A stretch of 64,000 nt of DNA from Clostridia bacterium (GTDB taxonomy: Bacteria > Bacillota > Clostridia > Oscillospirales > Acutalibacteraceae), in assembly GCA_017560255.1 (NCBI GenBank), contig JAFYOI010000056.1, positions 46,639-110,638 of the forward strand, in the 5' to 3' direction. Within the stretch, counting starts at the first letter, position 1, and every line of letters starts with the position of its first letter. The notes under the pieces were generated by a model, which did no database searches, was not told the DNA's origin, and saw nothing but the letters and a program-made list of their open reading frames with translations. The position numbers and the translations under genes were made by a program. Shown here piece after piece: positions 51,064-54,556 of the stretch.

Positions 51064-51092
51064 ATTATATTATTTTATATGGTCATTGTCAA
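51064..51092 (-). promoter_or_regulatory. alaS promoter (TTGACA-17-TATAAT)
   Basis: The reverse complement reads TTGACAATGACCATATAAAATAATATAAT. Confidence 0.55.
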
Positions 51093-51177
51093 TACAAAAA
51101 AATTATTAAAAACAGTTGCAACTTACCATATAGTTTGTGTTATAATACACCCACAACGATTTTTACGGAGAACACTT

Positions 51178-52188
51178 ATGAGTTACATAATCAATCCAAA
51201 AAAATGGAATAAAATATTTGCCGTGCCCGCCGAGGTGGTGGACAGGCATATTAAACTTGCCGGTTCAGCACAACTGAAAGTTCTGCTCTGGATGCTTCGC
51301 AACAGTGAAAGCGAATTTGACCTTGATGCTTTATCAAAGGGTACGGGAATTGCCCGCGCAGATGCGCTTGACGCTATGCAGTTCTGGGTTGAAACAGGCA
51401 TAATGCTTAAAAGCGGCGAAATCGCGCCCGCACAGAAAGCAGAAAAAATTAAGTGCGAAACTCTGACACCACCGACGCCGGAACCCGACCCGATTCGTCC
51501 CTCCGTTGTTGAACTTGATAAGTCTTCACTTTGCAACAAACCGACAACCGTTGACGTAGCAAGGCGCGGTCAGGAATCACCCGAACTGCGTTTTCTCTGG
51601 AATCAGGCTCAGGAAAAACTCGGCAAAACGCTCAGTTTCAACGACCAGCGCACTTTGCTTTGGATGCACGACTATCTCGGCCTGCCGATTGAGGTTATTT
51701 TAATGATAATCGAATACAGTGTGTCGCAGGAAAAACGTGGCATTTCATACATTGAAAAAATCGGCGTAAATTGGGCGCAGGACGAAATTTTCTCCGTTGA
51801 ACTTGCCGAAATCAAACTCTCACAAATCAAAAACAGAAATACTGTTTGGAAAAAATTGTGTGAAGAGTTCAGTCTGCCGAATGCCACCCCCACCCCCAAA
51901 CAAGCGGAATGGGTTGAAATCTGGACGAATAAATTCGGCTTTACCATTGATATAATCCGCCTTGCATTTGAGGAATGCCTCAACAGAACGGCAAAAATCA
52001 ATTTTAATTACATACACAAAGTGCTTGAAAATTGGAGCACAAACGGCTTTAAATCGCCCGAAGATATAAAGGCATCAACGAACAAACCGACTCAGAGCGC
52101 AAAGAGCGGTACTTCCTACAACCTGACGGAGTTTGAAAAATCATCGCTCAAAAAATCAATTGTCTATAAAAAGAAGAAAGAGGATTAA
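51178..52188 (+). CDS. DnaD domain-containing replication protein (DnaB/DnaD-type helicase-loading partner)
   Basis: N-terminal winged-helix region (LKVLLWMLRN) and C-terminal DnaD-like repeats (YIEKIGVNW, YIHKVLENW). Start is at ATG 51178. Paired with a DnaI-like ATPase. Confidence 0.75.
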   Translation: MSYIINPKKWNKIFAVPAEVVDRHIKLAGSAQLKVLLWMLRNSESEFDLDALSKGTGIARADALDAMQFWVETGIMLKSGEIAPAQKAEKIKCETLTPPTPEPDPIRPSVVELDKSSLCNKPTTVDVARRGQESPELRFLWNQAQEKLGKTLSFNDQRTLLWMHDYLGLPIEVILMIIEYSVSQEKRGISYIEKIGVNWAQDEIFSVELAEIKLSQIKNRNTVWKKLCEEFSLPNATPTPKQAEWVEIWTNKFGFTIDIIRLAFEECLNRTAKINFNYIHKVLENWSTNGFKSPEDIKASTNKPTQSAKSGTSYNLTEFEKSSLKKSIVYKKKKED

Positions 52189-52190
52189 GT

Positions 52191-53174
52191 ATGGCTTACA
52201 AAAGCGACGTAATCGAACAGGCAAAAAACATACTCAAAAAACGCGCACAAAAGGCGCAGTACGACCTTGAGGACAGGCAGGAACTTGCATACGAAAAATG
52301 CCCCGAACTGCTTGAAATAAAGAAAAAACTTGCCCTTTCGGGAATCGCCGTTGCAAGAATTATGCTCGAGGGCGGCGACCCGCAGGACAGAGTTGAAAAA
52401 ATCGCAAAGGAAAACCTTGCTTTACAGGCAAGGCGCAAGGAATTGCTCGCTCAGAACGGCTTTCCCGAGGACTACCTAAAACCCAAATTCTTCTGCGACA
52501 AATGCGAAGACACGGGCTTTGTTGACGGCAAAATCTGCGAATGTCACAGAAAACTTCTCCGCCAGATCTCTTTTGAGAAAATAAGTGAAATTTCCGCAAT
52601 CAAAACAAGCCGATTCGATAATTTTGATTTAAGTTACTATCCCGACGAACCCGACGCCAAAACGGGCGTTTCTCCGCGCCGACGCATGAGGGAAATTCTC
52701 AACTACTGCAAATGTTACGCCGATGATTTCAGCGCAAAATCGGACAGTATCTTTATGTATGGCGCAACGGGACTCGGAAAAACTCACCTCTCCCTCGCAA
52801 TCGCCGCAAAAGCAATCGAAAAGGGTTACGACGTAATTTATTCCTCCGCCCCGAATCTGCTTTCAAAACTTGAAAACGAAAAATTCGGCAGAAATCCCGA
52901 CAGTGTCGGCACGGAGGAGGCAATCCTCGACTGTGACCTGCTCATAATTGATGACCTTGGCGCAGAGTTTTCAACCCAGTTCACCGTTTCTGCGATTTAC
53001 AATATCATAAACACAAGGATAACTTACCACAAACCCGTTATCATCAGCACAAACCTCACCTCGCAGGAGTTGGAGGCGAAATATTCGGAGAGAATCACGT
53101 CCAGAATCATCGGTTGTTACACAGATTTGCTCTTTTTGGGAAAAGACGTGCGACAGATAATGAATTTGGAATAA
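52191..53174 (+). CDS. dnaI: DnaI/DnaC-type helicase loader AAA+ ATPase
   Basis: N-terminal zinc module CDKCEDTGF..CECH, Walker A GATGLGKTHL, and Walker B LLIIDDLG. Confidence 0.8.
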   Translation: MAYKSDVIEQAKNILKKRAQKAQYDLEDRQELAYEKCPELLEIKKKLALSGIAVARIMLEGGDPQDRVEKIAKENLALQARRKELLAQNGFPEDYLKPKFFCDKCEDTGFVDGKICECHRKLLRQISFEKISEISAIKTSRFDNFDLSYYPDEPDAKTGVSPRRRMREILNYCKCYADDFSAKSDSIFMYGATGLGKTHLSLAIAAKAIEKGYDVIYSSAPNLLSKLENEKFGRNPDSVGTEEAILDCDLLIIDDLGAEFSTQFTVSAIYNIINTRITYHKPVIISTNLTSQELEAKYSERITSRIIGCYTDLLFLGKDVRQIMNLE

Positions 53175-53193
53175 AAAAATTAAATTTATGTAT

Positions 53194-53222
53194 TGATTTT
53201 TGATTTTGACTATGCTATAATG
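53194..53222 (+). promoter_or_regulatory. tRNA-Arg promoter (TTGATT-17-TATAAT)
   Basis: TTGATTTTTGATTTTGACTATGCTATAAT, about 28 nt upstream of the mature 5' end. Confidence 0.5.
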
Positions 53223-53250
53223 CCTTGGTGTCAATCAAATATTGATATAC

Positions 53251-53327
53251 GCGGCGTTAGCTCAGCTGGATAGAGTGTTTGGCTACGAACCAAAAGGTCG
53301 GGGGTTCGAATCCCTTACGCCGTGCCA
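53251..53327 (+). tRNA. tRNA-Arg (anticodon ACG), CCA encoded
   Basis: Manual cloverleaf: acceptor GCGGCGT/ACGCCGT (G1-U72), D arm GCTC..GAGT, anticodon arm TTTGG-CTACGAA-CCAAA, T arm GGGGG-TTCGAAT-CCCTT, then G-CCA. Confidence 0.85.
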
Positions 53328-53330
53328 AAA

Positions 53331-53366
53331 ATAAGCATCACACTTTTGTGTGGTGCTTATTTTTTT
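53331..53366 (+). terminator. intrinsic terminator after tRNA-Arg
   Basis: ATAAGCATCACAC / GTGTGGTGCTTAT stem followed by T6. Confidence 0.8.
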
Positions 53367-53510
53367 GTTTATGGTTCAAATGGGATTCGAACCCGAGAGG
53401 GCGCGGAGCGTTAAGAAAAACAGTTCGGTGAACTGTTTTGTAGCGAAGCGGGGCGAGACGGGTACTGTTGCAACGCAACGGTCGGCAAGCCGTCAGTCTG
53501 CATCGCAGAC

Positions 53511-53534
53511 GGTCGAATCCCTTACGCCGTGCCA
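53511..53534 (+). repeat. direct duplication of the tRNA-Arg 3' end (att-like)
   Basis: GGTCGAATCCCTTACGCCGTGCCA compared with GGTTCGAATCCCTTACGCCGTGCCA at 53303-53327. The only difference is one missing T. Confidence 0.8.
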
Positions 53535-53536
53535 AC

Positions 53537-53573
53537 AAAAAAGGAACTTTTGTCTACCAAAAGTTCCTTTTTT
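53537..53573. terminator. bidirectional intrinsic terminator hairpin
   Basis: AAAAAAGGAACTTTTG / CAAAAGTTCCTTTTTT, a 16-bp stem with loop TCTAC. Confidence 0.8.
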
Positions 53574-53579
53574 GTTTAT

Positions 53580-53755
53580 CCAAGCCGCAGGCTTGGTATA
53601 TCATCGCCGCGCGAAGTGCGGTGCATATCATCAGCCCTACGGGCTGTATCTCATCACGCTTTAGCGTGCATCTCCCTGCGGCTTGATGATATACAACACT
53701 TCGTATTGATGGTATACCGCAACAAGTTGCGGATGATATACAAGGCTTCGCCTTG
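53580..53755. repeat. dyad-symmetric array: three copies of TATATCATC-type motif, then three copies of the inverse GATGATATAC-type motif, each flanked by a distinct short hairpin
   Basis: The six motif and seven hairpin coordinates are given in the finding for 53580-53755. Confidence 0.75.
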
Positions 53756-53884
53756 ATTTTTGACCGTCTGTTTGTTATACCTCAATAAATAGCCAATAAA
53801 TAATTAAAAGTTCAGGCTAAAAAGAAGTGTCATACACAACGTATGGCACTTCTTTTTGTTCACCTTTGCGGGAAAAGGTTTTTA

Positions 53885-54556
53885 TTATTCTTCAAACATA
53901 TTCCACGGATATTTATTGTCGGGAACACTTGACACGTCAATAGTTTCATTCGTAAACGGATGACGGAAGGAAAGTCGGTGCGACCAGAGAGAAACGTCAC
54001 AGTGATTGTCACGGCTGCCATATTTTCCGTCGCCAAACAGTGGCATTTTACGCGATGAAAACTGCACCCTTATCTGATGCGTCCTGCCCGTATGCAGACG
54101 GATTCTGACAAGTGACAATGTGTTGCCATCATTCACCGCACTGCCCACAACGGAATACTCAAGGCTCGCTTCCTTGACACCCTTTCTCATACGTTTTACA
54201 ACAAAGGACTTGTTTTTCGTCGAATCCTTGAAAAGCAAATCCTTATAAACTCCGCTCTCCTCCCCGGGCACACCGCACACAATGGCAAGATACTCTTTGG
54301 TAATGCCGTTTGACGAAACAAGTGCGGAAAGTTTCGCCGCCGCACGCTGAGTCTTTGCATAGACCATCGTGCCACCCACACTTCGGTCAAGGCGATGCAC
54401 ACAGTACGCCTGCGCGTTCTCATCTTTCTGTGCGAAATACTGCCCAAGCAGATAAATCATATTATCATCCTTGTCCGCCTGCCCTTGCGACAACACGCCA
54501 ACAGGTTTGACGCAGACAATGATATCCCTATCCTCATAGAGTACGTGCATTTTCAA
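53885..54556 (-). CDS. RluA family pseudouridine synthase
   Basis: HRLDRSVGG catalytic motif, 223 aa, no S4 domain. Confidence 0.88.
   Translation of the reverse strand: MKMHVLYEDRDIIVCVKPVGVLSQGQADKDDNMIYLLGQYFAQKDENAQAYCVHRLDRSVGGTMVYAKTQRAAAKLSALVSSNGITKEYLAIVCGVPGEESGVYKDLLFKDSTKNKSFVVKRMRKGVKEASLEYSVVGSAVNDGNTLSLVRIRLHTGRTHQIRVQFSSRKMPLFGDGKYGSRDNHCDVSLWSHRLSFRHPFTNETIDVSSVPDNKYPWNMFEE

Follow-up and report, generated by a model that had tools for sequence, protein, structure and literature searches.

Motif-and-hairpin arrays in the tRNA flanks of gut Clostridia and their possible PF05635 partner

Gut-1 (Rfam RF01706) has been an orphan RNA motif since 2010, described as a small RNA (sRNA) on one strand, from the 'human gut only' and with no context or function, and rated 'certainly RNA' on covariation (Weinberg et al., 2010; PMC2864571; Genome Biol 11:R31). 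Its model, with the consensus CAaUGAAAU-hp-GUGAAAU-hp-GUGAAAU-hp-UGAAAU, alternates a fixed linker with hairpins (hp) of free sequence. A comparable alternation is found at positions 53580-53755 of the DNA analyzed here (the window, a stretch of 64,000 nt from a Clostridia bacterium of the Acutalibacteraceae), downstream of a tRNA-Arg(ACG) gene. It represents, as an orphan, a conserved cis element that makes up the upstream part of a recurrent module, in which a stable-RNA gene (tRNA) is followed by a bidirectional terminator, a first hairpin (H1), three to five motifs, a centre complementary to H1, three to five inverted motifs, a promoter, and a gene of the PF05635 family. Relatives were collected by a pattern scan with one genome per species, which returned at least 120 loci of up to 8 kb each (designated here by L numbers), and all counts for the family apply among the matches listed; about 100 of these loci carry the same array as the window.

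The left part of the window array (53580-53667) has the architecture of Gut-1, with three hairpins of free sequence, a fixed linker, and a partial linker before the first hairpin, but its linker is GUAUAUCAUC rather than GUGAAAU. Gut-1 does not match the window at the gathering threshold (50 bits), nor at E <= 10 on 53150-53950; Rfam assigns no family to the array and no rRNA to the window, and canonical arrays at L122, L156, L066, and L105 are likewise without a Gut-1 match. Sister arrays at L244, L225, L211, L183, and L230 do match Gut-1 (59-78 bits). They are of the GTGAAAT and AGTGATAT types and hold one matching half per strand, as in L244 (78 bits for the half on the + strand, 47 bits for that on the - strand); they also occupy the same place, after a tRNA and its terminator and before a PF05635 gene. 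Because the model passes over the window array while it matches the GTGAAAT-type arrays, the window array is classed as a clear variant, a sister family of Gut-1 with a different linker, and Gut-1 itself corresponds to a single half of a dyad that is linked to tRNA flanks and to PF05635 genes. A first-pass annotation of the window had recognized no named RNA family in the array, which is literally true of this copy but misses the Gut-1 architecture.

Proteins of the PF05635 family are very common, and include orphan 'four helix bundle proteins', the open reading frames (ORFs) of 23S rRNA intervening sequences (IVS), and the Avd proteins of diversity-generating retroelements (DGRs). To our knowledge, neither function nor ligand has been known for about 30 years for those outside DGRs. 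IVS bearing a PF05635 ORF have been considered selfish or possibly mobile, with unknown function (PMC4990558). Those of Leptospira and Coxiella, with their S23p/PF05635 ORF, resemble the module in being small elements on a stable-RNA gene that combine such an ORF with inverted repeats, but they lie inside a 23S rRNA helix, are co-transcribed with the rRNA and are excised by RNase III, and their inverted repeats make one long terminal stem around the ORF; the dyad of the arrays is made of motif-plus-hairpin units with the ORF outside, and the window element follows a tRNA. In the DGR ribonucleoprotein, a pentameric Avd grips an RNA stem-loop, with flipped-out bases entering the crevices between protomers and the same residues of different protomers being used in the grip (bioRxiv 10.1101/2023.10.23.563531). 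The likeness to the module lies in a PF05635-like pentamer on a hairpin beside its own gene, reading bases at the foot of the stem. The DGR system nevertheless uses a single stem-loop in the template repeat/spacer (TR/Sp) RNA and needs a reverse transcriptase (RT), whereas the arrays hold six to eight sites in two opposed sets; no RT, TR, or variable repeat (VR) recurs near the arrays, and no RT was seen among the ORFs flanking the window array.

Two further kinds of described repeat bear comparison. The REP/BIME/REPIN elements of Proteobacteria also form mosaic intergenic clusters of tag and palindrome, in both orientations and after operon ends, but there it is the hairpin sequence that a family conserves, and RAYT is needed for spread; in the arrays it is the linker that is conserved, hairpin sequence varies freely, and no RAYT was found. 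The heptads bound by omega-type ribbon-helix-helix (RHH) repressors, WATCACW, and the iterons of plasmids are direct and inverted repeats of 7-10 bp that abut a promoter and differ in motif by family, as do the arrays, but they are contiguous or phased on duplex DNA, whereas the array repeats are split by hairpins of variable length.

Conserved arrays behind tRNA genes and terminators

Carriers of the arrays are nearly all Acutalibacteraceae, Oscillospiraceae, or unclassified Clostridia metagenome-assembled genomes (MAGs) from animal guts, and nearly all belong to the Oscillospirales. Among the arrays that can be oriented, 52/85 are exactly '---+++', with three inverse and three forward copies, and in these canonical arrays the 10-mers are near-invariant, with GYATATCATC or GTATMTCATC as the left-hand consensus and GATGAKATRC as the right-hand one. 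The spacers comprise 204 distinct sequences among 317, yet 79% of the 317 have four or more Watson-Crick pairs that start from the edges of the motifs (0.9% after shuffling). Across 42 right halves, 97.2% of stem cells are paired (71.9% when shuffled, at most 47% with the partner slid), 15 of the 16 pairs show compensatory, double-sided changes (145 cells against 35 when shuffled), and one-sided (G-U) changes are found in 0/672 stem cells. Spacer lengths range from 7 to 37 nt in the left half, where motif centres lie ~17 to 47 bp apart, and from 11 to 35 nt in the right half, mostly 13-16 nt; they vary so freely that no reading frame is kept, and a coding role was rejected on this account. At an orthologous Arg-His-Gln tRNA cluster in three species (~67-76% nucleotide identity) the 10-mers are kept and the hairpins differ by compensatory substitutions and paired indels, with homology ending just past the array and different genes lying downstream. 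Both the alternation of motif and hairpin and the compensatory stem changes are present in homologous arrays, and the earlier proposal of selection on structure combined with a sequence-specific reader receives strong comparative support from the constant 10-mers, the compensatory stems, and a motif that varies with the protein cluster (see below).

The arrays occupy a defined genomic address. A tRNA is found within 600 nt of 54/113 arrays. These invariably lie on the 3' side of the tRNA, in most cases 52-62 nt past its end, and the tRNAs concerned represent at least 20 isoacceptors. The usual order is tRNA-CCA, A-run, terminator hairpin, T-run, ATCC, and array, with TTTTTATCC typically between the bidirectional terminator and the array, and an upstream terminator-like hairpin bounded by A-run and T-run accompanies 64/68 related arrays. 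Arrays also follow the terminators of protein genes, and many are without an intact tRNA, being preceded instead by a tRNA 3' fragment where an element with a large serine recombinase or a tyrosine integrase has inserted in the tRNA. Many loci have a TTGATT-N17-TATAAT promoter whose -35 box is supplied by the truncated motif copy, TTGATT, that closes the array, and in relatives a ribosome-binding site (RBS) and start codon lie ~60 nt past this array-end promoter; the genes downstream of arrays are diverse. The components of the window locus are as follows.

53193-53221, + strand: sigma-70-type promoter TTGATT-17-TATAAT, upstream of tRNA-Arg(ACG)
53251-53327, + strand: tRNA-Arg(ACG), stable-RNA gene ahead of the module (ARAGORN; Rfam tRNA, 63 bits)
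53327-53364: terminator directly after tRNA-Arg
53513-53535, + strand: displaced copy of the tRNA 3' end, 23 nt, direct repeat of 53306-53328
53534-53576, strand-neutral: bidirectional intrinsic terminator (A-run, stem, and T-run), first component of the module
53580-53596, + strand: hairpin H1, CCAAGC-CGCAG-GCTTGG, preceded by the conserved junction TTTAT(CC)
53596-53667, + strand: left half, motifs GTATATCATC (53596-53605), GCATATCATC (53623-53632), and GTATCTCATC (53646-53655), each followed by a hairpin (53606-53622, 53633-53645, and 53656-53667)
53668-53685, + strand: centre, a degenerate fourth motif GCATCTCC and then CTGCGGCTTG
53685-53754, + strand: right half, motifs GATGATATAC (53685-53694), GATGGTATAC (53708-53717), and GATGATATAC (53732-53741), each followed by a hairpin (53695-53707, 53718-53731, and 53742-53754)
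53753-53781, + strand: decayed outward promoter TTGATT-17 nt-TATACC, with a truncated motif copy, TTGATT, as its -35 box
53819-53857: third terminator, between the array and rluA
53885-54556, convergent: RluA-family gene

With the tRNA 3' copy at 53513-53535, the terminator, and the array from 53580, the window shows the placement of the module (50-65 nt past the 3' end of a tRNA or its displaced copy, behind a terminator), and its array (53580-53755) has the full complement of three GTATATCATC-type and then three GATGATATAC-type motifs with seven GC-rich hairpins. Read from GATGATATAC, the unit is a 10-mer followed by A-stem-loop-stem-T, the next 10-mer beginning with no gap. About 150 nt of non-coding DNA separate the terminator at 53327-53364 from the displaced tRNA 3' copy, and no ORF follows the TTGATT-N17-TATACC promoter in the window, where only ~40 nt remain before the rluA terminator.

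Much of the first-pass description of the array withstood closer analysis. The six motif copies are where it placed them and far above chance, matches with at most one mismatch numbering 16 in the 64 kb against 2.5 +/- 1.6 in shuffled sequence (0/100 shuffles reach 16), and all three exact copies in the window fall inside the array. Its hairpins are real on either strand, the 196-nt array region folding with z = -4.6 on the + strand and z = -4.4 on the - strand, although the register given as ATAC-N8-GTAT is better drawn as AACAC-TTC-GTATT (53695-53707), with one mismatch in the window and none in relatives. The bidirectional terminator is borne out by its stem, a perfect 19-nt inverted repeat (53534-53552 / 53558-53576). 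The reported complementarity of CAAGCCGCAG (53581-53590) to CTGCGGCTTG (53676-53685) is exact, pairing the 5' arm and loop of H1 with the array centre; it recurs in relatives and co-varies in at least three variants (CAAGCCGCAG/CTGCGGCTTG, CATTGCGAAA/TTTCGCAATG, and CAAGCCGACAG/CTGTCGGCTTG), and it is kept as architecture in other motif families too. Other claims fared less well. A 'seventh copy' of the motif, TTGATATAC at 53242-53250, exists, but a similar sequence lies within 20 nt upstream of only 1/120 tRNAs in related loci, and its link to the tRNA 5' leader is a matter of chance. Folding of the region as one long interrupted hairpin was not upheld, cognate pairs of forward and inverse motifs having no fewer mismatches than non-cognate pairs; a global hairpin joining left with right motifs was accordingly rejected, and the lack of position-specific complementarity indicates that the motif is conserved as a sequence and not as a pairing partner.

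Several other candidates and search routes were set aside. No switch in GC skew marks the array as a replication terminus or origin, and a transposon with cargo between the array halves was rejected, the halves never lying more than ~100-180 nt apart. RluA was of no use as a route to homologues: at L003, L005, and L007 (RluA identity 76-90%) no array lies downstream of rluA, and synteny breaks there. Phage and plasmid collections gave no blastn match to 53366-53870, and a pattern scan of 2.9 million viral contigs gave 63 loci, 62 of them chance or coding repeats and the remaining one (L066) a true homologue of the whole tRNA-to-array interval; with this single homologue among viral contigs, a phage origin of the feature was rejected. 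Nothing relevant to the 10-mer was found in the literature.

Up to three arrays are found within 8 kb, and the order of units differs between loci as if shuffled. Arrays in one direction only, with six to nine GATGATATAC-plus-hairpin units, were also seen at L148 (828-1031), L178 (7610-7754), L146 (5887-6012), and L138 (2136-2415). In these, whole units are duplicated and the contexts are other than tRNA, which shows that the unit behaves as an expandable tandem repeat.

A recurrent PF05635 gene and its family-specific motifs

Once spurious ORFs were removed, a single gene recurred as a neighbour of the arrays. It encodes a protein of ~115 amino acids (e.g., at L171, sequence MPKNYLLIYSEQLATDIELLCQSIK...) belonging to PF05635, the '23S rRNA-intervening sequence protein', an Avd-like four-helix bundle (Pfam E = 1.9e-18) whose closest solved structure, 2RLD, has five chains. 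This protein at first seemed to form a cluster of 43 members, but many of those were spurious ORFs read through arrays and tRNAs, and ~18 true members remain in the at least 120 loci. The converse, protein-first scan of metagenomes with four PF05635 queries returned 80 loci (40-89% identity). Upstream of PF05635, at least three copies of an 8-mer per orientation were found in 53/71 cases, against 4/64 for downstream controls, the dyad lying between about -250 and -50 of the gene. Of 49 non-identical PF05635 loci with enough upstream sequence, a dyad array upstream is present in 36 (73%), a tRNA on the same strand whose end lies 150-450 nt upstream in 32 (65%), and the two together in 25. At L122 a 1.1-kb segment bounded by repeats of the tRNA 3' end contains the array together with genes for a PF05635 protein and a membrane protein.

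Clusters of these proteins (>=75% identity) each have one motif, which changes from cluster to cluster; the cluster motifs include GATGATATAC, GATTACATAC, AATATCAC, ATTTCAC, ACTTCAC, and others. Other tRNAs of the same loci show the same architecture with GATTACATAC, AATATCAC, or TATTTCAT as motif, or with hairpin-less heptads, and at L078 a variant GATTACATAC array stands ahead of a divergent PF05635 gene. In searches of the literature, no description of such an association between PF05635 or four-helix-bundle proteins and repeats was found. These data link Gut-1 to PF05635 proteins, give each PF05635 cluster a candidate cognate sequence, and place the motif-protein pair on the 3' side of tRNA operons, a site of broken synteny and variable accessory genes. 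This context opens Gut-1 as well as the orphan PF05635 proteins to experiment, and it provides an annotation rule for intergenic regions that number in the hundreds among gut and rumen Clostridia.

Beyond the Clostridia, tandem 7-nt arrays precede PF05635 genes in replicons of Bacteroidota, Spirochaetota, Cyanobacteriota, and Chloroflexota, and two of them are dyadic. Long tandem heptad arrays directly upstream of PF05635, each within ~330 nt, were observed in Bernardetia (L273), Treponema (L274), Nostoc (L276), Planktothrix (L277), and Chlorohelix (L278). Within this set the repeats include 15 copies of TTAGTGA, ~40 of GAAAGNG followed by inverted CTCTCCG, 4 of TTCAAAA, and 3 of GGATGAA; one dyad among them reads GATTTAC ... 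CGTAAAT/CCCCAAT. The cyanobacterial heptads resemble the classical STRR heptamer repeats. In Monoglobus (L275), Planktothrix, and Chlorohelix the PF05635 gene interrupts an operon for restriction-modification or for a helicase and methylase, lying either between hsdS and hsdR or between the helicase and N6-methylase genes, and the Monoglobus copy carries no annotation in its record.

Proposed role of the array and rival explanations

The explanation we favour, tentatively and as something a little short of an even chance, is that the array is a cognate binding array for PF05635 pentamers, orphaned in the window by the absence of the gene, none being found in the 64 kb by tblastn. In this model, the linker (GTATATCATC / GATGATATAC) would be the specificity determinant, read by a cognate PF05635 pentamer with five equivalent binding crevices, and the Watson-Crick hairpins would act as sequence-free spacers which, once extruded in single-stranded DNA or in read-through RNA, bring the motif copies side by side. 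Hairpins acting as extruded spacers would explain both the free length of the spacers and the contiguous 7-nt repeats of hairpin-less families. Binding could then control or insulate the abutting promoter at the edge of a highly transcribed tRNA operon, and/or promote the spread of the module into tRNA flanks. The window array is probably served in trans, because it is conserved as well as gene-linked arrays are; orphan canonical arrays show 0.57 mismatches per copy, against 0.53 in gene-linked ones. As to the form of the nucleic acid, DNA is favoured by stems that are strictly Watson-Crick, by the dyad symmetry, and by a location with a terminator on one side and a promoter on the other; the Rfam filing and the families with no promoter between array and gene make RNA a candidate too.

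Several points weigh against this explanation. About 70 of the 85 canonical arrays are followed by unrelated genes or by none, and the window array is likewise an orphan. Co-variation of motif and protein could reflect the co-inheritance of a linked unit and not recognition, and we know of no demonstration of sequence-specific binding by a PF05635 protein outside DGRs. Some motif families leave no room for a promoter between array and ATG, so the regulatory logic is not uniform. With respect to the nucleic acid, the terminator-promoter position argues against abundant RNA, and stems of 5-6 bp make poor cruciforms in duplex DNA. The canonical family also shows an excess of G.T over A.C mismatches, a strand asymmetry that is not reproduced in other motif families, and strand-specific folding, a candidate drawn from this excess, was dropped for that reason.

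The array might instead be a stand-alone structured sRNA, as Gut-1 is filed ('Gene; sRNA'), made by read-through of the tRNA terminator or from a promoter of its own and acting independently of PF05635, with linkers that could titrate an RNA-binding factor or pair with a target. The first-pass annotation had offered a structured non-coding RNA, and the sister family is filed as one. In favour, RF01706 matches homologous arrays of other motif families, hairpin covariation is strong in the present arrays as it was in Gut-1 when rated 'certainly RNA' (PMC2864571), and in some families the array must be transcribed for the downstream gene to be expressed. What makes this alternative unlikely in our view is that 0/672 stem cells are G-U, which is unusual for RNA helices, that a Gut-1-like half on each strand (L244, 78 and 47 bits) would give a transcript composed of one 'sense' and one 'antisense' half, that canonical arrays come after a strong bidirectional terminator and before a promoter, and that contiguous heptad arrays with no hairpins hold the same position. 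A further alternative is an operator, iteron, or centromere-like array on duplex DNA for some other sequence-specific DNA-binding protein, such as an omega-type RHH repressor, controlling the array-end promoter. The TTGATT-N17-TATAAT promoter that ends the array at many loci, the 3+3 dyad, and a motif conserved as sequence rather than as pairing partner all suit such an operator, and in the relatives that have no hairpins, 7-bp repeats run on without gaps in direct and inverted sets, an arrangement that resembles the omega heptads WATCACW. We nonetheless consider it improbable, since spacing in the left half varies from ~17 to 47 bp, with no helical phasing, no reason is given for the selected hairpins, and no regulator gene recurs except PF05635.

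Mobility provides the remaining alternatives. The arrays could be REP/BIME- or REPIN-like selfish palindromes spread by a single-strand-specific HUH (RAYT or IS200-type) enzyme, with PF05635 as frequent cargo; tag-plus-hairpin units in direct and inverted clusters, intergenic after terminators, up to three arrays per 8 kb, shuffled unit orders, long one-directional arrays, and the strictly Watson-Crick stems expected of DNA hairpins all speak for this. REP families, however, conserve their hairpin sequence, whereas 204 distinct spacers are found here and the stems alone are conserved; no Y1/HUH transposase recurs in the at least 120 loci of up to 8 kb; arrays kept at orthologous tRNA loci with ~25% flank divergence indicate residence rather than recent transposition; and no target-site duplication was recognized. 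Such an origin is therefore quite improbable, and an earlier suggestion of a single-strand-active site of HUH or oriT type, possible in itself, finds no supporting gene. The same annotation had also proposed arm-type sites of a tRNA-integrating element, as would be left in an attP/attL arm by an element integrated in tRNA-Arg. A 23-nt direct repeat of the tRNA 3' end does adjoin the array, and the 1.1-kb segment of L122, with array, PF05635, and membrane-protein genes, is bounded by such repeats. Against this, the array lies outside the repeat-bounded insert in the window, in ~10 other loci, and in L155, where the integrase-bearing element is itself without an array; arrays follow at least 20 different tRNAs as well as protein-gene terminators, no integrase recurs near them, and only one true match came from 2.9 million viral contigs. 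Arm-type sites are thus very improbable, and since the inserts in the window and in L155 lie between the tRNA and its displaced 3' end, with the array outside, and large serine-recombinase elements leave a like flank of 3' fragment, terminator, and array, the array is a resident flank of the tRNA and not the arm of an integrating element.

A broader proposal can be made, which we regard as rather doubtful: PF05635 pentamers and family-specific repeat arrays may constitute a general two-part system, previously unrecognized, that colonizes stable-RNA genes. Its versions would include Gut-1, the tRNA-flank arrays, the ORF-bearing 23S IVS, and the heptads of cyanobacteria, Bacteroidota, spirochaetes, and Chloroflexota, the repeat serving as an address for the protein and the hairpins letting the same protein geometry work on single-stranded nucleic acid. 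Such a system, if real, would amount to a new kind of mobile mini-element or of promoter/insulator control.

Inserts, possible cassette ends, and leaders around the arrays

The 3' end of tRNA-Arg in the window holds a 207-bp mini-insert (53328-53535) bounded by the 23-nt direct repeat, and the copy at 53513-53535 marks the original tRNA end, which bore the terminator and array before the mini-insert arrived. Within the insert there are a separate terminator, the T-arm repeated in inverse orientation as GGGATTCGAACCC (53382-53394), and the hairpin AAAACAGTTC-GGT-GAACTGTTTT (53417-53439). Homologues of 170-230 nt, each bounded by a 3'-end repeat of the tRNA that it adjoins, occur at ~10 loci with different tRNAs (e.g., L066, L100, L105, L131, L159, L163, and L168), and one forms the distal end of the 1.1-kb island in L122; the mini-insert looks like a miniature non-autonomous tRNA-integrating element. 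Larger inserts were also observed. An integrative element of ~4 kb in tRNA-Pro(CGG) at L155 (1600-5700), bounded by a ~40-nt repeat of the tRNA 3' end and with the array outside, encodes a tyrosine integrase (PF00589), a CRESS-virus-like Rep (PF02407 Viral_Rep plus an SF3 helicase), and a CI/LexA-like repressor, and at L082, L135, L154, and L174 a large serine recombinase gene lies beside a tRNA 3' fragment that is followed by terminator and array, which suggests that serine-recombinase elements have integrated inside tRNA genes of these Clostridia.

Two tags recur at the 3' ends of cargo genes. Unrelated cargo genes share a conserved sequence of ~45 nt, GGTTTTCAGGCACATTTCATTCGTGTCATTAAGTTCAAACTACCC, placed after their stop codon and ahead of the A-run with which the next array's terminator begins, at L159 (~2100-2200), L183 (two places), L188, L106, and L171 (~4700), and a second tag of the same kind, GTTGCTATTTTAANCTGTAAACACA, was found at L122, L139, L156, and L167; both may be cassette-end signals. 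On the other side, a conserved promoter/leader of a second type, TGATATAATCANNTCGACAAATAAGAATTTG, precedes unrelated genes downstream of arrays at L092, L118, L122, L139, L147, and L156, and a commoner leader, TTGATTTATTGCCGCTTTTATGCTATAATACACCCAAGGCGGTGATTTT, reaches the start codon of at least nine unrelated ORFs; together these leaders look like a 'mobile promoter'. Immediately upstream of tRNA-Arg, the window carries a DnaB_2/DnaD-like gene and a DnaI/IstB-like AAA+ gene (51079-53174), a pair that accompanies the array only in this genome (L001 being the identical sequence).

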